Source: Octopus vulgaris (taxonomy: Eukaryota). Taken from it: DNA of 64,000 nucleotides. The stretch's first letter is position 1. Each line of letters begins with the position of its first letter. The translations under genes and the position numbers were made by a program. The DNA is taken from positions 29,884,001 to 29,948,000 of the forward strand of contig OX597827.1 of NCBI GenBank assembly GCA_951406725.2, written 5' to 3'. Below, one piece after another: positions 8,761 through 63,400 of the stretch. Under the pieces are notes generated by a model that did not search any database, was not told the origin of the DNA, and saw only the letters and a program-made list of their open reading frames with translations.

Positions 8761-8858
8761 GGAGGTAGGTATGTGGGGGGTATTTTTTCGAAAAAAAAAA
8801 CTTAAGAGGAGGGGGCTGTGTTGAGTTCGTGTGGGGTAGTGGTTTGTAGGGTGAAGAT

Positions 8859-10458
8859 TTAGCGTTGCTCCAAGTGGAGCCTAGATAGTGGACGACCATT
8901 GTGTGGGGCGAGACCAAACACTGAGATGTCATCTGGGGAATGGCTGGCCGAGCGGAAGTGGCGTGCGACGGGAGAAAAAGAGTGTAGGCGAACGTCCCTC
9001 AGATGTTCTGCGAATCGGTCAGACAACCGGCGTCCCGTCTGTCCTACATACCGCATCCCGCATAGGTTGCATTTAATGCAGTATATGAGGCCAGACGAGG
9101 TGCACGTAAAAGAGTGTCTAATACGTACAGTTCGCCGGTTAGAGCCGGTGACAGCAGTGGTGTTGGTGATGAAGGGGCAGGTGTTGCAACGGGATCTAGA
9201 GCACGGGAAAGATCCGTGTGGGGCTGAGGGGGAAGGAGAGAGGGTGCTGTGGACCAGGAGGTCGCGTAGATTCTGGGCTCGTTTGAAGGAGGACAGGTGT
9301 GGGTTGGGGAAAATGGGGCGGGTTGTGGGATCGAGCTGGAGGCGACGGAAAAGGAGGGGGAAGGGTGTGCGGTTGGGGGGGTGAGAGGAAGGTGGTGCGG
9401 TCGATGCGACGGGCGCGGGCGAAGGCATTTGAGATGAGTATAGGTGGGTAACCTCGGAGTCTGAACAGGCGGGCCAGGTATTGAGATTGGGTCTCGAAAT
9501 CCTGGTCGCGGCTGCACAAGCGTCGGTGGCGGAGGAACTGGGAGTTTGGTGTGGAAGGGGTGGGAGGAGGAGAAGTTGAGATAGAGGTGGGAATCCGTGG
9601 GTTTAAAGAAGGCGGTGGTGGTGAGAGAGTGGGAGGGGTGGTCGATTCGGAGAGAGATGTCAAGGAAGTTGACAGAGGTGTTGGAGATGGTTGAGGTGAA
9701 TTGTAGGGAGGGGTGAAAGTTGGAAAGGAAAGAGATGAATTGGCAGAGAATTTCACGGGAAAGGGAGGTGGCACCTATGCAGTCGTTTATATAGCGACCG
9801 TATAGTTCAGGGGTCGGCCTGGAGAATTGGGAGAATACTTGGGCCTCAATGTAGCCAAGAAAGAGATTAGCGAAATTGGGGCCCATTCTAGTTCCCATCG
9901 CGACCCCGGACACCTGTTGGTACGTTTCCCCGGCGAACGTGAAACAGTTGAGGGTTAGAACGAGCTCTGCCAGGCGGAGAAGGGTGGGGGGCGCTGGGGC
10001 TGGGGTCGGGACGACGGTCGAGGAAGTGTTGGAGGGCTAGGAGACCGTCATTGTGGGGAATCACTGGGTACAGGGATTTTACATCTAAAGTGAAGAGGAG
10101 GTGTGAGGGGCTGGAAGGGAAGGAAAAGGAATTGAAGAGACGGAGGGCGTGGTTGGTGTCGTGTATGTGGGATGGGAGGGCTGCGACTAAGGGGGACAGG
10201 ATGCGGTCGAAGTATAGGGAAATGTGTTCAGTGGGGCAATTACAGGCAGAGACTATGGGACGGCCAGGATTATTGGGTTTATGGATCTTGGGAAGGAAAT
10301 AGATGGTGGAGCTGCGGGGTGTGCGGACGATGAGGTTGGTGGCGGTGGGGGGGAGAGCAGTAGAGGAGATGAGGTCGTGGATGGTGGAGGACACACGCTG
10401 TTGGTAGGAGGAGGTGGGATCGGAGGGGAGGAGGCGATAGAAGAGGGGATTTTGAAAT
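8859..10458 (-). pseudogene. PLE reverse transcriptase / GIY-YIG endonuclease, frameshifted
   Basis: YFLPKIHK..GRPIVS, LDVKSLY, GVAMGTRMGP, YGRYIND (YIDD mutated), FLDI, CSRSRCNTC and LIYCIKCNLCGMRYVGQTGRRLSDRFAEH spread across several frames. Confidence 0.92.
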
Positions 10459-10491: not shown

Positions 10492-10882
10492 TAGAGAGAC
10501 TTAGTAATTTTAATATTTCTATTATTGAAAACAAGTGGATGTATTCCACCGAAGCTAGGTAAATAAAACCTTCGAACAGAGATTGTCAGAAGCGACACCT
10601 ACTGGTCTGGCTACGCTGCATTGAAAAGGGGCAATACCCCGAAACGCGTCTGTAGCTGCCGGTCAAGTAGTGTGGAGCGACTGACCTCCCTTGTTCGAAG
10701 GTTATATGGATACAGTTTGTGTATCAAATAGCTAACTTAAGGCGATGGCCTCATGGAGCTAATAAGCGGACAGCTTTATTCTTATTTTTATAAGAATGCC
10801 ATATTAGTATGGCGATAACTATTATTTTCCGGGAACGCTGCCGTTGTTCTCTTTTAGAGAGACTTAGTAATTTTAATATTTC

Positions 10883-10888
<6 letters not shown>
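10492..10888 (+). mobile_element. Non-coding retrozyme-like element A (period 363 nt, about 1.1 units) with HHR
   Basis: 34-nt direct repeat TAGAGAGACTTAGTAATTTTAATATTTCTATTAT at 10492 and 10855; internal HHR; (TA)n flanks; no ORF. Confidence 0.78.
10615..10656 (+). ncRNA. Minimal type-I hammerhead ribozyme (U3-A8 core variant)
   Basis: GCTGCA-TTGAAAA-GGGG-caata-CCCC-GAAA-CGCGTC/TGTAGC: 6-bp stem I, 4-bp stem II, palindromic ACGCGT stem III, predicted cleavage after 10650. Confidence 0.85.
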
Positions 10889-10941
<53 letters not shown>

Positions 10942-11002
10942 CATATATATATATTTATATATATATATATTTATATATATATATACATATATATATATAT
11001 TT

Positions 11003-11063
<61 letters not shown>

Positions 11064-11097
11064 CATATATATATATTTATATATATATATATATATA

Positions 11098-11694
11098 TAA
11101 GAAATATTGAGTTTCTAAATCTCTCGTAGAGAGGTGTACGGTGGTGGAGCGATATAATGGTTGTATACTGTCAATCTAACAAGAACGTGACAGTAGGGGG
11201 TACACCACCGTTATATAGCCCTAGGAGGCATCGAACGCCTCCTGACAGCTTCGACACATTTTATCCTGTGTCCTTATATACACATACGAAGGGGAGACAA
11301 ACACCCCCAACTGCCGGAACTGCATCTAGGGACACCGTGTTTAAGGATCATTGTCCTTCATCGGCCTAGAATAGCAGACACCGGTCAGCCGGCGATATCT
11401 GTCTCGACTTCGTATCTGTATATATCTATAGTCAGTGAAGTCTATTCACTGATTATCAAAATAAGAAATATTGAGTTTCTAAATCTCTCGTAGAGAGGTG
11501 TACGGTGGTGGAGCGATATAATGGTTGTATACTGTCAATCTAACAAGAACGTGACAGTAGGGGGTACACCACCGTTATATAGCCCTAGGAGGCATCGAAC
11601 GCCTCCTGACAGCTTCGACACATTTTATCCTGTGTCCTTATATACACATACGAAGGGGAGACAAACACCCCCAACTGCCGGAACTGCATCTAGG
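11098..11694 (-). mobile_element. Non-coding retrozyme-like element B (period 364 nt, about 1.64 units) with HHR
   Basis: 11098-11330 is repeated at 11462-11694; HHR at 11325-11370; (TA)n on both sides. Confidence 0.82.
11325..11370 (-). ncRNA. Type-I hammerhead ribozyme motif (U4C, G12U variant)
   Basis: Reverse complement TCTAGG-CCGATGA-AGGA-caatga-TCCT-TAAA-CACGGTGTC/CCTAGA; perfect 6-bp stem I. Confidence 0.8.
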
Positions 11695-11697
11695 AAC

Positions 11698-11756
<59 letters not shown>

Positions 11757-13560: not shown

Positions 13561-14134
13561 TTGTCATCAAAAAAGGGGGTAGAATTAATTAATTGTTAAT
13601 AAATTCGACCAAGCAGTATTCGGTATGTAAAGACCATTTACAGTATATTTGAAGTATTAATTTATAAAAATATGGTAAAGTACAAAAATTCACTTTACCA
13701 CACACCGAACTTTTCAGAAATAGCAGCCAAAGATTTGGCTATTTCTTCAACTGCAAATAAAAGTCTCCAGACAATGCATACTCAGAAAATAACTCACATA
13801 GGTATAAGGGAAAAACAATGAAAGATCACATCCATATACGATACCCGAGGACAGTCTGTTTCTGGATTTGTGGGTAAAACGCCACTTTTCCTTCATCAGC
13901 TCAGAGATTTCTTCTGATTTAGATTTGAAAATACTAAGAATCAAACATACCCGTCCGATATCTGTAACATCGGACAAACCATGCCAGACACCCAGTACTA
14001 GCGAATCCAATGCATTGTCTGGAGACTTTTATTTGCAGTTGAAGAAATAGCCAAATCTTTGGCTGCTATTTCTGAAAAGTTCGGTGTGTGGTAAAGTGAA
14101 TTTTTTTACTTTACCATATTTTTATAAATTAATA
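13561..14134 (-). mobile_element. HHR-bearing PLE pseudo-LTR/retrozyme with a 125-bp inverted repeat, nested in a TA tract of PLE2
   Basis: Arms 13655-13779 and 14010-14134; HHR 13845-13904 reverse complement CTGAG-CTGATGA-AGGA..TCCA-GAAA-CAGACTGTC/CTCGG. Confidence 0.8.
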
Positions 14135-14244
14135 TATATGTATATATATATATTTTTTTTTCGATTCAATTTATTATTATTATTACTAGTATTGTTGTTA
14201 TACATACATACATACATACAAGCATATGTAATGATAATAATGGG

Positions 14245-16146
14245 ATGATGTGGACAATTGTTCTGGGACCCCAGAAACGTACAGGAAATAATTTCCAAGC
14301 CTGGAACAATGATATCCCGGCACTGTATGGACTTCGCAAGGACCATAAAATAATTACTGACCCTATAGCAGGACCACCAACAAGACCAGTCTGTGGAGCG
14401 AATATCGCTAGCAATTACAGCATCTCCTACTTCCTCTCAATGATCATACGCCCTATAATCCGAATGTCACCTGATGTTTGTGACAGCACAGAAGATCTCC
14501 TCAGCAGGATCGATGACTGTAACAGCACTTGTGACCTGACAGGATGTATGGTGGGTAGCATGGATGTGGTATCCCTATACCCATCGATCGACGTAGATTT
14601 TGCGGTGGAGAAGTGCGTGGAGATGATCAATGAGAGCCAGGTGGAGTTCTGTAATGTCAACACAGAAGAACTGGGCCTCCTACTTAGACTGACATGTAAT
14701 ACTGAATACTTAGATAAACATAATCTTAGTAGTTTCTGCCCCAGTAGATGTTTAAGAGGTAGACCGCCCACAATTACTTCTATGACTAGGAAGACACATA
14801 TAGAAAGATGGCGCGGATGGACCAGAGCCATACGGAGCCCCGCAAATGTCCATCAGATAAAGAAAATGATCGCACATGCACTAGGAGCTAGTATAAGAAT
14901 TACCCTAAAAGGCCACACGTTTAAGTTTAATAATAAAATATATGCCCAGGACAAGGGGGCAGCCATCGGCGTTAGTATCGCTGGTGATGTGGCCAACCTT
15001 TTCATGGTATGGTGGGACAGAAGGCTTAAAGAACGCCTAACACAGAACTCCATACTCGTAAACATGTACTCTCGTTATGTTGATGATATCAACATAGTGG
15101 TAAAGGCACCCCCACAAGAGAGCAATGTTGATATAGTAATAGAAACTAATACTATGGAGAGCATCCAGCAAATAGCTAACTCCATCCACCAGAGTATTAA
15201 GGTCACAATAGACTACCCCACTAAACACCCCAACCATAGACTACCAGTACTAGACACCGAACTCTGGCTAGAAATTGTGAATAATAAAACCCAAATCCTT
15301 TATTCATACTATGCCAAACCTATGGCCTCAAAATACTTGATCCACCGGAACTCAGCCATTGCGGACAATGCCAAATTCAATATTTTGATGGCAGACCTCG
15401 TCAGAATAATGAGAAATGTGTCATGCATGTGCGAGCCCACAGAGTTAAAGAGACACATACAATATTTCATTCACCGCATGCAGTTCTCAGGTTACAGCCA
15501 TAAAGAAAGGATCAGAGTATACAATGGAGCCATTAAGAAATTTGATAATATATTATGTAATGATAGGAATGGTATTTGCCCACTCTATAGGAACAAGTCA
15601 TGGAACACTATAGAAAGGACAAAAAATAAAATAGGGAAGGTCAACTCTTGGTATGATAGCCATAAATACCAGAGTGTCATGTTCGTTGACACCACTCCTG
15701 GAGGTGAACTGGCGTATCGCTTTAGAAGGACCCTAGACAAACTTAAGCTAAGAATTAAGGTTGTTGAAAAGCCAGGCAACCCTATCAAATCTATAATTGG
15801 TAGAACCTATCCTTTTAGTAGAACCCCCTGTACAGATAGGTACTGTACTGTATGTAGATTTAGCCCACAAACAAACTGTAAAGCCAGAAATGTAGTCTAT
15901 AGTATAAGATGTATAGAGGGACGATGCAGTAAGAAGACAACGACATACGTAGGGGAAACGGCAAGAAGCATAGGAGAGCGGGTAAATGGGCATTGGAGAC
16001 AACTCAAAGAAGGTAAAAGCTCATCGATTCTGTACCAACACGCCGAACAAGAACATGGGGATCAATCAATAACAGAGAAATTAAAATATTATCCACACAT
16101 AGATCAGATGCAACAATTAGACAAATTACAGAAGCTACACACATAA
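14245..16146 (+). CDS. PLE reverse transcriptase with C-terminal GIY-YIG endonuclease (5'-truncated, probable frameshift near the C-terminus)
   Basis: LYGLRKDHK, TRPVC, GSMDVVSLYPSI, YAQDKGAAIG, YSRYVDD, LPVLD, CTDRYCTVC and VVYSIRC..YVGETARSIGERVNGH in one frame. Confidence 0.9.
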   Translation: MMWTIVLGPQKRTGNNFQAWNNDIPALYGLRKDHKIITDPIAGPPTRPVCGANIASNYSISYFLSMIIRPIIRMSPDVCDSTEDLLSRIDDCNSTCDLTGCMVGSMDVVSLYPSIDVDFAVEKCVEMINESQVEFCNVNTEELGLLLRLTCNTEYLDKHNLSSFCPSRCLRGRPPTITSMTRKTHIERWRGWTRAIRSPANVHQIKKMIAHALGASIRITLKGHTFKFNNKIYAQDKGAAIGVSIAGDVANLFMVWWDRRLKERLTQNSILVNMYSRYVDDINIVVKAPPQESNVDIVIETNTMESIQQIANSIHQSIKVTIDYPTKHPNHRLPVLDTELWLEIVNNKTQILYSYYAKPMASKYLIHRNSAIADNAKFNILMADLVRIMRNVSCMCEPTELKRHIQYFIHRMQFSGYSHKERIRVYNGAIKKFDNILCNDRNGICPLYRNKSWNTIERTKNKIGKVNSWYDSHKYQSVMFVDTTPGGELAYRFRRTLDKLKLRIKVVEKPGNPIKSIIGRTYPFSRTPCTDRYCTVCRFSPQTNCKARNVVYSIRCIEGRCSKKTTTYVGETARSIGERVNGHWRQLKEGKSSSILYQHAEQEHGDQSITEKLKYYPHIDQMQQLDKLQKLHT

Positions 16147-37109: not shown

Positions 37110-39947
37110 TTATGTGGTGTCATTCATTCTCAACTTCCGTGCTACATCCTTCCATCGTTCTTCATACACTCTTTTAGTCAGGCATTTTCTCTCCAGCCCT
37201 ATCTTCCTTTTCAGGTGGTAGATGAAGTAATTCATCAATCCAGGGCCGGATATGAACTTGCCTGACCGTATACCTTTCATTCTCGTCTTCCATATCACCT
37301 CTTTCGCAATTGCTACCACAACGAGAAAACAATTCTTACCTTCTTTCGCGAGGAAATCTGGTGGGTCAATTTTTTTAATACACTCAGTCGACAGCTGTAC
37401 TCTTCGTGTGCTTGACAACAGCTGTTCGGCATAAACCCACACCTCAGACACGACCGAACAATGAACAATAGCGTGCGGGACGGTTTCCCTATCCCGCCCG
37501 CATCTTGGACACATCGGACTGTCTTGGCCACCGTGCCTTGCGAGTTTATCCCGAACAGGTAGAGCTCCTCTGTAGCATTGCCATGCCAGAGACTTCTGGA
37601 AGTTGTCCAGTGTCTTCGGCTCGAACGTACGTCGGAACAGACTGGCCAGCTGATTATCGTCGAGACCCAGGGTTTCCCCCAAGGTGTCTTCACATTTCGC
37701 CTCTACCAACCCTCTATAGAAGAATGTGGTGGAACCCCCACCGCAGGCGTTGCCCGAGCGACGGAATAGCAGGAGAGCCTTGCGACACTCCGTATACCAT
37801 GTGCCCAGTTTCGATCTACGATTCAACCAGGTTTCCCATCCACCGAAACTAGTGAACTTGGGAAACATCCGTTCTGCTAGCGAAGACCACACCCGTTCAC
37901 CATCCAGGTAGAGCCACAGATGTCTTAACCTCAGCGCATGTTTGCGCATCAACAGCCAAGGCATCCCTAGCCCACCCTTTAACGGTTGTTGACAGCAAGT
38001 AGAGCGTTTCACAAGTGGTTTCCCGCCCTTCCACAGGAAGTAGAAGAGCTGTCTTTCCAACTTGGTCAACCACGAATCAGGGCATGGAACGACGGAAAGG
38101 CGGTAGGTGATAACCGATGCGATAAACACATTGGCCACCTCCGCCCTCCCTTTCAAGGATAGCCACCGCCAAGACCAGGTCTTGGCTACTGCAGCCACCT
38201 TGCTCGTTACCTCGCCCCAATTCTTCTCTATTTGGAGGTCTGGACCGAACCAGACCCCTAGCAGTTTAATCGGACCCTCCGTCCAACGTCCCACGACGCT
38301 GTCAGGAGGCATCGACTTGCCTCTCCAGGTGCCGAGTTGCAAGCCGACTGACTTTTCGCGATTAACTTTTGCTCCTGTCACCGTCTCGTAATCCTCTATG
38401 GCCTTGCCTACTTTACATAGGTGGTCCATTTCGGTCACGATGATGGTGATGTCGTCCGCGTACGCTGACACTGATTTTCCATTACCTGGCTGTCTCGGGA
38501 TGCCGCTCAGTTTTCGCAGTAATGGCTCAAGAGCCATTACGTACAAAAGCGGGGAGAGCGGACACCCTTGACGAACCGAGCGTTTGATTTTGAACGGCTT
38601 CGACAAGAAGCCGTTCACCCGAACTACCGAGTCGATGTTGTCGTAAATTTGGATAATCCACCTGAGGAAGCCAAGGCTCAGCCCGAACTGTGCCAGGGCA
38701 GACACCAGGTAACGATGGTCGACCCTATCAAAAGCTTTGGATTGGTCTAAATGGACCAGTGCCCCACCCTTGCCAGAATCACTATTAAACCCCTCTATAG
38801 TGTACCGCATTAGATGGAGATTATCCTGAATGGTTCTGCCCGGAACGGCACATGTCTGTGCCTCCCCGATCAGACCATCCGCGACACGCGCCAATCTTTT
38901 CGATAACACTTTGGCCAAAATCTTCAACTCTGTGTTTAGCAGAGTGATGGGCCTGAAATTATCAATGCACTCCCCCTTGCTCGAGTCCTTTCTGACGAGA
39001 GTCACCACTCCCCGGCGCACAGATCTGGGTATAAGCCCGTTCTGCTGCCAGTTCGCATAGACCTCCGCCAGTAGGTGCCCGAACAAGTCTGGCATACTCT
39101 TATATAACTCGTAGGGTAGACCATCCAAACCCGGCGCCTTGCCCGCGCCGCAGTCCGCCATTGCCTCCACCACCTCCTCAGGCGTGATTGGCCCTTCACA
39201 GCCCTCCGCATCTCGCCCCGATAAGTGCGGCAGCCCGTCGAGTAGGTCCGTAAAGGCCCTCCTCCTATCCAGCCCGCCGCACTCACCGAAAAGCTGAGCG
39301 AAGTGCTCCTGAAAGGCCTCACACATCTCCTCGGGTTCGTCTATCAACTCACCTTGTTGGTTCTTCAAAGATCGAATCGTGGCATCGTTGCCATTCCGGG
39401 CTTCCACCACTCGGGCCCATCTCACGGCGTTGATTCCCTCACATCCCATATGACGGATTCTAGCCCTGACAATGCAGCCCATGTGTTTGGCCTCGAGGTG
39501 CTGGTTTAACACCAGTCTCTTGGCCGCCACCTGAGCCTCAGAGTCAGTTTTCATGGCTTCCTCTAATTCCTTAACTAGAGTAGTTTCCCTTCTAGCCTCT
39601 CTAGACACTACTCCTATGCTATATCTAATAGACTCAAACTTGATGGCTCGTTTGAGGGCGTACCACCATTTGTTATTAATGATGGCACCAGACAGCGCCC
39701 TCTGAATTATGGTCCTAATCCGGTCTCTGTACTCCTTAATCGCCAAAAGGGACGTATTAAGTTTCCAGTAACCGGATCCTCTATTTCTAACCTTATCTAT
39801 GTCAAGCTTACAAGTGACCATTTTATGATCACTGTAGCTGATCGGGTAAAACTGTGGACACTTAGCTATTTTACTGTCTACCTTTCTAATTAGAATTCTA
39901 TCTATGTATGACCTGGAAGATCCGTCGCTGTTTGACCATGTCCACAA
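37110..39947 (-). CDS. Tx1/L1 ORF2: C-terminal part of APE endonuclease, RT and C-terminal Cys/His finger (5'-truncated, otherwise open)
   Basis: SYIDRIL, YSDHK, GYWKLN, KAPGLDG, NFRPITLLN, LDQSKAFDRV, RQGCPLSP, AYADD, CPRC..ETVPHAIVHC. Confidence 0.93.
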   Translation of the reverse strand: MWTWSNSDGSSRSYIDRILIRKVDSKIAKCPQFYPISYSDHKMVTCKLDIDKVRNRGSGYWKLNTSLLAIKEYRDRIRTIIQRALSGAIINNKWWYALKRAIKFESIRYSIGVVSREARRETTLVKELEEAMKTDSEAQVAAKRLVLNQHLEAKHMGCIVRARIRHMGCEGINAVRWARVVEARNGNDATIRSLKNQQGELIDEPEEMCEAFQEHFAQLFGECGGLDRRRAFTDLLDGLPHLSGRDAEGCEGPITPEEVVEAMADCGAGKAPGLDGLPYELYKSMPDLFGHLLAEVYANWQQNGLIPRSVRRGVVTLVRKDSSKGECIDNFRPITLLNTELKILAKVLSKRLARVADGLIGEAQTCAVPGRTIQDNLHLMRYTIEGFNSDSGKGGALVHLDQSKAFDRVDHRYLVSALAQFGLSLGFLRWIIQIYDNIDSVVRVNGFLSKPFKIKRSVRQGCPLSPLLYVMALEPLLRKLSGIPRQPGNGKSVSAYADDITIIVTEMDHLCKVGKAIEDYETVTGAKVNREKSVGLQLGTWRGKSMPPDSVVGRWTEGPIKLLGVWFGPDLQIEKNWGEVTSKVAAVAKTWSWRWLSLKGRAEVANVFIASVITYRLSVVPCPDSWLTKLERQLFYFLWKGGKPLVKRSTCCQQPLKGGLGMPWLLMRKHALRLRHLWLYLDGERVWSSLAERMFPKFTSFGGWETWLNRRSKLGTWYTECRKALLLFRRSGNACGGGSTTFFYRGLVEAKCEDTLGETLGLDDNQLASLFRRTFEPKTLDNFQKSLAWQCYRGALPVRDKLARHGGQDSPMCPRCGRDRETVPHAIVHCSVVSEVWVYAEQLLSSTRRVQLSTECIKKIDPPDFLAKEGKNCFLVVVAIAKEVIWKTRMKGIRSGKFISGPGLMNYFIYHLKRKIGLERKCLTKRVYEERWKDVARKLRMNDTT

Positions 39948-40290
39948 TGGAGGAGGAGGGATTATGGCAGGGCCAGATTATCACAATGGCAATACAAGCG
40001 GAGGCCCAGACACTGGAGGAAATACCAGAGGTGCTGAGGCTCGATGAGGAGGAGAGAGTACTGGTATTTGTAGAAGGAAGAAAACCGAGGTGCTTCGGCT
40101 GCGGAAAAAAGGGACACGTAAGAGCGGAGTGTCAACCTAAACCGCAGGTAGAAGCACCGTCGGAAAAAGAAGAAGCGGAGAAGAAAAAGAAAACAGAGGA
40201 AACCAAAGAGGTGGAAAAATCTGCAAGTGGTGCAGAAAAGGAAAAAGAAAACGAAAAAGAGGAGGGGTGGTCTAAAGTTACCCAAAAAAA
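39948..40290 (+). pseudogene. Inverted Tx1 ORF1 (gag-like) fragment with CCHC zinc knuckle
   Basis: EGRKPRCFGCGKKGHVRAEC, lying inside the TSD pair. Confidence 0.85.
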
Positions 40291-44889: not shown

Positions 44890-49829
<4,940 letters not shown>

Positions 49830-60428: not shown

Positions 60429-63400
60429 TCTTTACTTTTACTTTTACTTTACTTTTTCTAGTTTGAGCTCATGAGCTGTGGCCATGCTGGGGCACCGCCA
60501 TTTGGTGTTGCTACTTGGTTTTACTTCACGAAAGCTTTTTAGCAACTGCCATTTGGTGCATGAGAGAGTTCGATGCAGCTGCCCTCATCTGCACCTCCTG
60601 CCGTGAAGTTGGTTCATCTGGGACACCTGACAGGAAGAGATCCAGTTCCATTTTAAAGACATCTGCATCCACCCCATGCAGGTCTCTCAGGTTCTTCGGG
60701 AGGATATTGAAGAGCTGTGGGCCACGGAACCCCAGGCTATCACAGTATCTTGTCCTACATCTTGACGGCAAATCTGGAGTCCTAGGCACCACGCAGTGGC
60801 CCCAGTTCTGGCATTTGTGTAACTCTCGATGCCAAAGTTTGGGACACGTCTCTCCAGGATCTTCCAGATGTATATTATGGCATATCTTTCCCGCCTACGC
60901 TCCAAGGAATATAGTTTTAATCTCTTGAGTCTTTCCCAGTAGCTTACATTCTGCATAGAGGCTATCTTCTTCGTGTAGCTACGCTGGATCGCCTCGAGCT
61001 CTGTGATCAACTTGACACTGGATGGTGACCATAACTGAGAGCAATAGTCAAAGTGGCTTAGGACAAGTGTCCTCCAGAGGACCATCATGGTTTCTTGTTC
61101 TCTTGTTCTAAAGGTTCTGAGAATCCATCCGGCCAGTCGTCTACATTTCATTGCCAATTTAGCAACATGAACACGAAAGGTTGCGTCATCGCTCATGTAA
61201 ATACCCAGGTCACGCACTGATTGTGCCTCTTGGATTGCTATTCCTCCCGGTCCAGTGTATTCATTGGGTATTGCATTTAGTTTTGCATGCTGATAGTATA
61301 AAGCTTGAAACTTTTCAGCATTGAACTGCATGCTATTCTTTTCAGCCCACTTGTATATTTCGTCCAGCTCACATTGCAGGTGCTTAGTGTCTTCAGGGTT
61401 CTGTATTGCCTGTGAAACTTTTGTATCATCTGCATAACTTGTGATCGTAGCTCTCTGCGTGTCTGAGGGCATGTCTGAGAGGGCTATTATGAACAGTAGT
61501 GGTCCCAAAACAGTGCCCTGCGGAACACCGCTCACTATTTGTGTGTTAATGGAAGTGGCCACCTGACTTCTATTCTTCAGAAAGTCATGAAGCCATTCTC
61601 CCAATTTTCCAACTATGCCAAGATCACGCAGTTTGTGACATATCATTCCATGATCGACTTTATCAAAGGCCTTTGCAAAGTCGAGATATATGACTTCCAC
61701 ATTTGAGTGGTTGAGCAGTTGTTTCAGCACCCAGTCATAGTGCTGCAGGAGCTGAGTTAAGCAGCTTCTTCCTGGTCGCAAACCATGTTGGGTGTCAGGC
61801 AGCAAGTCATTTTCTTCAAGGAAGGTGATTAGTTTCCTTCTGACTATTCGTTCCATGACCTTGCTGATGTGTGAGGTCAGAGAGATAGGTCTGTAGTTCT
61901 TGGCCTCTGCTCTGCTACCACCTTTATGAATAGGGCATATTTTACCTTCCTTCAGTTTTTTTGGAAGTTTGCCAGCTGCTAGGTTTGCCGGGAATCCATC
62001 GGGGCCAATAGCTGATTCTGTTTTCATTTCATCTATGGCCTTTATTACATCGTCTTCCTTTATATCGATGTAATTTATCGTCGCCGCCTCTGATTTTATA
62101 TCTGCAGTGGTAAAGAAGTCAGTTGGATTGGTGATTTGGAAATGCCCGAGGGGTGGAGTGAAAACACTCTTGAATTGCTCATTCAGTATTTCACTTACCC
62201 TCATTGGTTTTCCTGTGAGTGTGCCATCCTCTTCAAGGAGTGGCCCTATCCTACAGTGCACCGTAGCTGTTTCTTTGGCATACCTGTAGAAAGCTCTGGG
62301 GTTAGATTTTATGTTGTCTATAGCCCAGGCTTCTTTGTCTGCTCTTTCCTTTTCATGGGAGAGTTGCAGACATTTTTCAATTTCCAACAGTTTTATTTTC
62401 AGGCGGGACTTTTCACTGCTTTCAATCTGTTTGTTTAGGCGATTTGAAATTTTTGTACGCTGTCTCATTAAGATTTTCCTCTCTCTGGGGATTTTGTTCT
62501 TGTGTACAGTGGCCTTTCTCTCTGGGACACATTTGTAGCATATGGCTTGCGTTACAGACATGAATTGTTGAAGTTTCACGTCGATGTCTGGCGAGGAGTG
62601 ACATTTAGGCCAGTTTTGTTTGAGGATCTCTTTCTCAATTTGTTTCCAGTTTGCCTTATGGTAGTTCAAGCTGGAAAGATTCTGAGGTTTCTTGTAGGCT
62701 GCATGTCCGTGCTCTCTTTTGGCCCGTACATGGTCAGCTCTACCATGTTGTGATCCGAGAGTAGTGTCGGTGTCACTTTCACATTATGGATGAGATCCAT
62801 ATTATTTGTGACTTATTAGAACTTCTATTTTTATAAGGCAGTCTTCAAACTTGCCCACATGGCTTGGGGCATCTGGAGGGCAATATGTAGCACACACAAC
62901 TACATCAAGTTGCCTAATATGTACAATTAGTGTGTCACACAACGAGTTTGAGTATGACAAGAGGACCTGGGGTGTGAGGTCCTCACGGATGTACATAGCT
63001 ACTCCTCCATGACTCCTTTCTTTTCTGTCGGTCCGTAGTACAACATACTGTGGTATGTGTAACTCCGCATCTGCTATGTCCGGTTTCAGGTGCGTTTCTG
63101 TAAGTGCTATGCATAAGGCTTGATTGCATGCAACAAAGTCTCTCAAGAATGGGATCTTTGTCCTGTTACTGAGTGTTTGCAGCCCTCTGATGTTCAGTAG
63201 GAGCATCGAGGTGAGGTGTATGTTGTTGCCGGCGGTGTCCATCCTGGGTCTGTTTGCTGTGGTTGTCTTGTATATAGTGGGTAGTGCCACCTGCGGGCTT
63301 GGGTTTGATGAAGCCAGGTCAGCTGCTGTACAATCTTTTGTGCCAAGCACAAAAAAGATTGCTGCTCAGCAGCTGCCCTTTCAACAATATCATGTTTGCG

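Follow-up and report, generated by a model that had tools for sequence, protein, structure and literature searches.

Retrozyme-type insertions of Octopus vulgaris with two fixed 3′ ends and 5′ ends mostly scattered relative to a predicted hammerhead cut site

Metazoan non-LTR retrozymes are elements for which the available text of Cervera and de la Pena (2020, PMC7229834) proposes circular RNA templates and mobilisation by Penelope-like elements (PLEs). Their vertebrate counterparts are argued, in the accessible part of a more recent preprint, to be non-autonomous PLE derivatives (Li, Clavereau, Pollet 2026, bioRxiv 10.64898/2026.07.22.740005). PLE insertion units, as the available portions of two accounts describe them, have a one-sided tail and an inverted arm (Arkhipova 2013, PMC3846280; Craig 2021, PMC8557442). 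For the Anolis PLE, the accessible text reports two internal start sites of the reverse transcriptase (RT) in vitro, extension on both strands, dispensable cleavage and a predicted dimer (Frangieh 2024, PMC11167929). Thus far, PLE mobilisation of retrozymes and the two-start idea have been either proposed or shown only in vitro.

Here, we describe an insert in Octopus vulgaris whose testable features identify it as a metazoan non-LTR retrozyme, and whose insertion footprint is that of a PLE. It lies in a 64,000-nt window, by which we mean the whole stretch of DNA analysed (GCA_951406725.2, OX597827.1, 29,884,001-29,948,000, forward strand); the genome searched for its relatives comprises 2.8 Gb in 227 contigs. 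As in metazoan retrozymes, the unit is short (within 150-450 bp), non-coding and arranged head to tail, with one type I hammerhead motif and a highly self-paired monomer. As in PLE-mobilised elements, there are two alternative 3′ ends, a tail on one of two inverted arms, and AT-rich or (TA)n targets. Two other assignments were rejected. An autonomous PLE would encode RT and GIY-YIG domains, and the 364-nt unit is too short for such an ORF. Plant LTR retrozymes carry type III hammerheads in their LTRs; the motif here is type I and the layout tandem or inverted.

The insert consists of 364 + 233-234 nt on the minus strand, between (TA)n tracts (Table 1). Along that strand, the order is (TA)n, a short extra piece, the 364-nt unit, the first 234 nt of the unit again, and (TA)n. 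The two repeat copies are 364 nt apart and show no difference across unit nt 1-234 (100% identity). The partial unit shares its last bases with the TA tract and is therefore assigned a length of 233-234 nt and not one value; its 'long' 3′ end, at unit nt 234, is presumably where the RT started. At the other junction, the upstream copy ends at TCTAGG (11689-11694), and GGAACTGCAT, present at 11680-11689, is repeated at 11693-11702 and followed by (TA)n. This re-copy overlaps unit nt 1-2 by 2 nt and the TA tract by AT. Since the GG at 11693-11694 is common to the repeat end and the re-copy, the 5′ breakpoint falls between +1 and +3 relative to the predicted cut and is not provably +1; beyond a single mismatch at 11695, two further bases agree with the read-through sequence. 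The re-copy is the only clear case among 59 single-arm loci, where three other automatic calls are 7-nt matches.

Table 1. Positions of the two retrozyme-type elements, their predicted parts and their flanks in the window
Feature	Position	Strand	Basis or remark
Homologous family A element, 363-nt unit + 34 nt	10492..10888	+	used as independent replicate
Family A hammerhead-like motif, U3-A8 core	10615-10656	+	predicted cut 10650/10651
(TA)n tract at 3′ end, tail to tail with family A element	10889..11099
Partial second family B unit, nt 1-234, ending at the family's 'long' fixed 3′ end	11097..11330	-	sequence identity
Unit nt 179, the family's 'short' fixed 3′ end, unused in window copy	11152, also 11516 in first unit	-
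Type I hammerhead-like motif, C at core position 4, short stem III	11325..11370	-	motif scan
Full 364-nt family B unit, predicted cut to predicted cut	11331..11694	-
U in place of G12, private to window copy	11343	-	core counts
10-nt direct re-copy of unit nt 6-15 at 5′ junction	11693..11702	-
(TA)n tract at 5′ end	11701..11756

An earlier sequence-only reading of this locus had given the same anatomy, with the cut at 11331/11330, a stop at TCTAGG, a short duplication and (TA)n, and in these respects it is confirmed. Its view of a retrozyme-type insertion is likewise supported, and priming at (TA)n fits the flanks. It further held that the insert starts exactly at the cut; a start at +1 to +3 is supported, an exact +1 start is not provable. 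Of the 364 + 233 nt it counted, the monomer stands, and the second figure becomes 233-234 for the reason given above.

In the predicted minus-strand hammerhead, TCTAGG (11370-11365) pairs with CCTAGA (11330-11325) to form stem I, the core CCGATGA lies at 11364-11358, stem II is AGGA/TCCT, and the cut GTC/CCTAGA would fall between 11331 and 11330. Two hammerhead-like motifs emerged when the whole window was scanned (11364, minus strand; 10621, plus strand), and an Rfam scan of the window gave no match at the gathering threshold. The ribozyme assignment is built on motif, fold and covariation, with cleavage as its prediction. The B unit is predicted to fold into a rod with paired ends, closed by hammerhead stem I (z = -9.96; 0/100 shuffles equally stable), and the family A unit has the same rod layout with paired ends. 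In a comparison of seven related sequences, both partners differ in 8 of 13 named pairs, one example being C3-G8 replaced by U3-A8; owing to the relatedness, this tally carries no probability. Each unit has one type I motif; in the window copy, the core is mutated. In older B subfamilies (L303-L332), stem III is perfectly palindromic, and in younger ones a single gained base breaks the palindrome. According to the available text of PMC4209133, hammerheads of this kind with palindromic stem III act as dimers; the broken palindrome possibly reflects a shift from dimer to monomer cleavage. At L300:9700-9900 lies a third relative, more distant from B (71% identity over ~100 nt), with a canonical core and compensatory stem changes. 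Further sister families probably exist.

To sample family B, an anchor motif (unit nt 149-166) was used, which has 1017 matches in the genome. The loci behind the first 100 of these matches (56 loci, 55 kept, 89 arms) constitute an unselected sample, and the full set of 135 loci adds others chosen by BLAST or by junction motif. Overlapping duplicate loci were counted once, and L069 was left out because it is located within a larger tandem duplication. From the 89 arms given by 100 listed matches, family size is very roughly 900 arms; therefore, 2-3 arms would end by chance on any given nucleotide of the 364. The unit is non-coding, with a 364-nt period and multimers present in the family, and insertions show variable 5′ truncation, inversion, and AT-rich or (TA)n targets. 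Their 3′ ends cluster at unit nt 179 and 233-234, with a canonical end in 159 of 215 arms. Among 91 head-to-head loci in the full set, 78 have two canonical outer ends and 13 a non-canonical end. Every one of the 78 combines one short with one long end, as do all 31 such loci in the unselected sample. At least one junction is crossed by 134 of 215 arms (two or more by 20), and by 41 of 89 in the unselected sample. Crossing of a ligated or multimeric junction, which the earlier reading suggested for the window copy, is thus the rule in the family. Rare variants are common to both arms of one locus in 9/207 cases, compared with 0.1% in shuffled pairs. Very short arms (30-38 nt) recur and come from either start site (L061, L116, L137, L139, L144; L028, L106, L119), possibly due to an early pause or the collision of two RT complexes.

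Family A behaves similarly. Its 3′ ends, at +175 and +238, can be aligned to those of B, and 41 of 42 head-to-head loci with two canonical ends have one short and one long end, with 5 further head-to-head loci having a non-canonical end (69 loci examined). Pooling both families, 119 of 120 head-to-head insertions follow this pattern. Family A is very young, its best copies being 99-100% identical; it has 1050 junction matches, and its arms cross up to 8 junctions. Rare variants are common to both arms in 9/88 cases, against 0.16% in shuffled pairs. Comparing the long A arms unit by unit did not tell a circle apart from a recent array. Both flanks are TA-rich at 54/91 B and 36/47 A head-to-head loci; at the remaining ones, duplications of at least 6 nt were called automatically, some probably spuriously, at 15/37 and 3/11, respectively. 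At some non-TA sites, target duplications enclose both arms.

The sequence-only reading interpreted the 5′ end of the window copy as a DNA record of ribozyme cleavage in vivo, and it named randomly distributed 5′ ends of other copies as the observation that would speak against this. The 5′ ends are, for the most part, scattered. Of the 45 passes over +1 in the unselected B sample, none stops at -2 to +3. In B, the interval +1 to +8 ranks 137 of 357, and its stop rate of 3 per 586 nt is similar to the 26 per 5553 nt at -60 to -1 (p = 0.53). Genome-wide, the base ahead of the first 17 nt of the B unit is C in 306 matches and a different one in 7. These seven matches comprise two point mutants, two inversion junctions (6-nt complementarity within stem I explains one of them), two clean starts (L035, L036) and the window copy. 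This amounts to 5 true +1 ends in 313 passes, where ~1.6 would be expected from the flanking stop rate of ~0.005 per nt (p = 0.02); without the window copy, 4 ends remain (p = 0.07). More than 98% of B passes cross the predicted cut site. A tolerant +1 pattern gave 11 matches, of which 4 were new, namely one point mutant and three unrelated sequences. An apparent hot spot of 5′ ends at unit nt 69 (10/211) was rejected as a single-reference artefact, the distribution being flat with two references.

In family A, there are 10 true +1 ends versus 3.2 expected (17 non-C and 1033 C matches), and +1 to +8 is the top-ranked interval, where 7 stops occur in 543 nt, compared with 14 in 5511 nt upstream (p = 0.002). 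One caveat is that the first bases at A +1 resemble the flanking microsatellites. A control position, +70, which has the same first four bases, yielded 7 true ends among 14 matches, for an estimated 1260-1540 passes. Relative to this matched control the +1 excess is only 1.7-2.1 fold (p = 0.10-0.19), and a cleaved-end route is therefore possible but minor, accounting for at most 1-2% of passes. At one head-to-head A locus (L189), the arms end at +1 and +2, both at the predicted cut, and are separated by 44 nt of other sequence; no other single locus is as good a candidate for having had a cleaved linear template. The window copy itself is only weak evidence for ribozyme cutting in the cell, and we doubt that it is a record of such an event.

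The sequence-only reading also reported UAAA for the conserved GAAA in the internal hammerhead and asked how frequent this G12U change is. The T at 11343 is indeed present. Across 51 sampled cores from 29 loci, position 12 is G in 50 and T in one. Only three exact-context cores in the whole genome lack G12, and the sole T among them is that of the window copy; contigs of four other sequencing runs have G. G12U was accordingly rejected as a family device. With G12U private to one copy and G in 50/51 cores, read-through needs no dead ribozyme, and the earlier proposal of a dimer disabled by G12U becomes unnecessary. Some indication in its favour persists in the 5′ re-copy and in the changes that mark the window copy. 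The latter are near-private and lie at unit nt 305, 324 and 352. The once-copied 130 nt contain all three (p ~0.03), and the two 234-nt copies are alike, a hint that the changes were already on the RNA template. G12U itself was probably an incidental mutation.

What kind of template gave rise to the insert? Almost all sister copies read through intact sites, and so the window copy likely derives from circular RNA. We favour, at a probability of roughly two in three, a single-armed copy made from a circular retrozyme RNA by a borrowed Penelope-like RT, with the near-cut stop being due to chance. By analogy with the retrozymes in the available text of PMC7229834, tandem copies would be transcribed, self-cut and ligated to a 364-nt circle. 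A Penelope-like protein would cut both strands of AT-rich DNA, and one cDNA would be primed at nt 234 and another at nt 179, from the same RNA source. These cDNAs would run through the junction, stop at scattered points, and join head to head or lose one arm. For the window copy, this would mean priming in (TA)n, a start at nt 234, passage through the junction and loss of one arm, and its stop near the predicted cut would most likely be coincidental. Two internal start sites suit a circle because a circle needs internal starts, and linear templates could hardly maintain arms with as many as 8 junctions. It should be noted that uncleaved linear multimers give a DNA pattern identical to that of a circle, and that the variants shared between arms could alternatively come from gene conversion after insertion. 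The slight +1 excess, the unusual 5′ re-copy and the confinement of three changes to the once-copied part all count against the circular, Penelope-based account. They would fit a linear RNA template with a ribozyme-cut 5′ end, from which the RT ran off before slipping back by 13 nt and joining to (TA)n. In that case, the internal site would have survived through G12U, incomplete cleavage or reopening of a circle during copying. The end at +1 to +3, the two other clean B starts, the ten A +1 ends and the raised A stop rate at +1 to +8 point in the same direction, and we consider such a minority route unlikely but worth keeping in view. Its weight is reduced by the matched +70 control and by the fact that two of the five B +1 ends are inversion junctions. 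An exact-pattern search of the genome found no second G12U copy that might have been the source. In a dimeric hammerhead, moreover, a dead core would spare the partner's site, not its own. If the octopus motif acts in the dimeric mode described in the available text of PMC4209133, G12U would spare the partner's site, the opposite of what this scenario needs, an objection that is not decisive because the young stem III could fold as a monomer.

It is also conceivable that uncleaved linear read-through transcripts of tandem copies serve as templates, such that the ribozyme is mostly a passenger and the layout is inherited from the source loci. The crossing of the site by >98% of passes is in keeping with this. 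In the accessible text of PMC11167929, insertion of the Anolis PLE is unaffected by hammerhead mutants and no RNA-seq reads start at the cut; similarly, only 1 of 9 Xenopus retrozyme dimers was cleaved in vitro, as far as the available text of the preprint goes (bioRxiv 10.64898/2026.07.22.740005). Under linear templates, unit number would decay, because a copy cannot exceed the length of its template, but arms with 2-8 junctions persist in young families. Furthermore, covariation between families A and B is seen both in the motif and in the rod that closes the ends, and no long B array was found among 100 listed of 306 junction places or among the 40 best-scored loci. We therefore regard passenger status of the ribozyme as rather improbable. 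Returning to the circular template, a more ambitious and tentative extension, which we would not bet on, is that the two young families record the whole Penelope mechanism, with one circle primed twice from the two ends of a single cut, invariably once at each of the two fixed sites, and ~1% of passes, including that of the window copy, running off a ribozyme-cut 5′ end. If this is true, the +1 excess of 5′ ends would measure in vivo cleavage or circle reopening.

Which PLE might act as the partner? An abundant young PLE lies next door (window ~8830-10450, minus strand) as a 5′-truncated copy; it has 15424 first-look candidates in the genome, and we take it to be Neptune-like. Its full units are ~6.2 kb, tandem at L299-L301; a hammerhead-like motif precedes the ORF, and a long (CATA/CA)n stretch follows it. 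No shared sequence was detected between families A or B and either this adjoining PLE or a second PLE family, and Pfam assigns no family to two neighbouring PLE ORF pieces. A ribozyme-only search pattern had 226 matches, in older B subfamilies; in the 30 loci read, no PLE protein match adjoins a 364-nt unit, and neither these loci nor the two PLE families include an autonomous partner with A or B ends. At a single locus, at least 1.7 kb of the ORF of the abundant adjoining PLE directly precedes a family A arm, fused to its 5′ end in the same orientation and with no TA spacer (L266:2255-4001 joined to 1820-2253). This may be an RT template switch, which would name the partner, or a post-insertion deletion. 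Elsewhere in the window, a 672-aa frame (14128-16143, plus strand) encodes a PLE-type RT, with only a sub-threshold Pfam RVT_1 match, and is presumably Naiad-like. Long reading frames with LINE-type endonuclease and RT (37113-39977, minus; 46414-49695, plus; 60690-63365, minus) sit among very long (TA)n tracts.

Taken as a single-copy proof of in vivo ribozyme cleavage, the locus does not stand. As a family, these elements are short and young and offer hundreds of insertions, which lend quantitative genomic support to PLE mobilisation of animal retrozymes and to two internal RT starts, one per cut strand. They also provide exact RNA positions (179 and 234 in B, 175 and 238 in A) and a 364-nt substrate with which rolling-circle reverse transcription can be tested. 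A literature search, with subscription papers and supplements outside its scope, returned no histogram of 5′ ends against the cut site for any retrozyme family and no count of the short-plus-long rule.

Finally, we compare the octopus families with known systems. Like the metazoan non-LTR retrozymes of PMC7229834, as its available text presents them, they have a non-coding unit of the 350-390 nt class with one type I hammerhead, a short stem III, a self-paired fold and tandem copies. In contrast to them, the octopus copies are partial tandems dispersed through the genome, most of them in head-to-head arrangement, and their 3′ ends fall at two fixed sites; circles and cleavage, which were shown for those retrozymes, are predicted for the octopus families. 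With the vertebrate retrozymes in the accessible part of Li 2026 they share the element type and co-occurrence with PLEs. There, the link to PLEs consists of pLTR homology and distribution; here, it consists of insertion ends, with no parent pLTR found in the two PLE families compared. Like the endonuclease-positive PLE units in the available texts of PMC3846280, PMC8557442 and PMC11167929, the octopus insertions have an inverted 5′-truncated arm, a one-end tail, (TA)n targets, two RT starts and hammerhead read-through. Unlike them, they have no ORF, and their tail measures 55 nt in B and 63 nt in A, as opposed to 30-40 bp. In those same texts, PLEs have the one-end tail 'optionally' or 'often', whereas in families A and B it is near-absolute (119/120).
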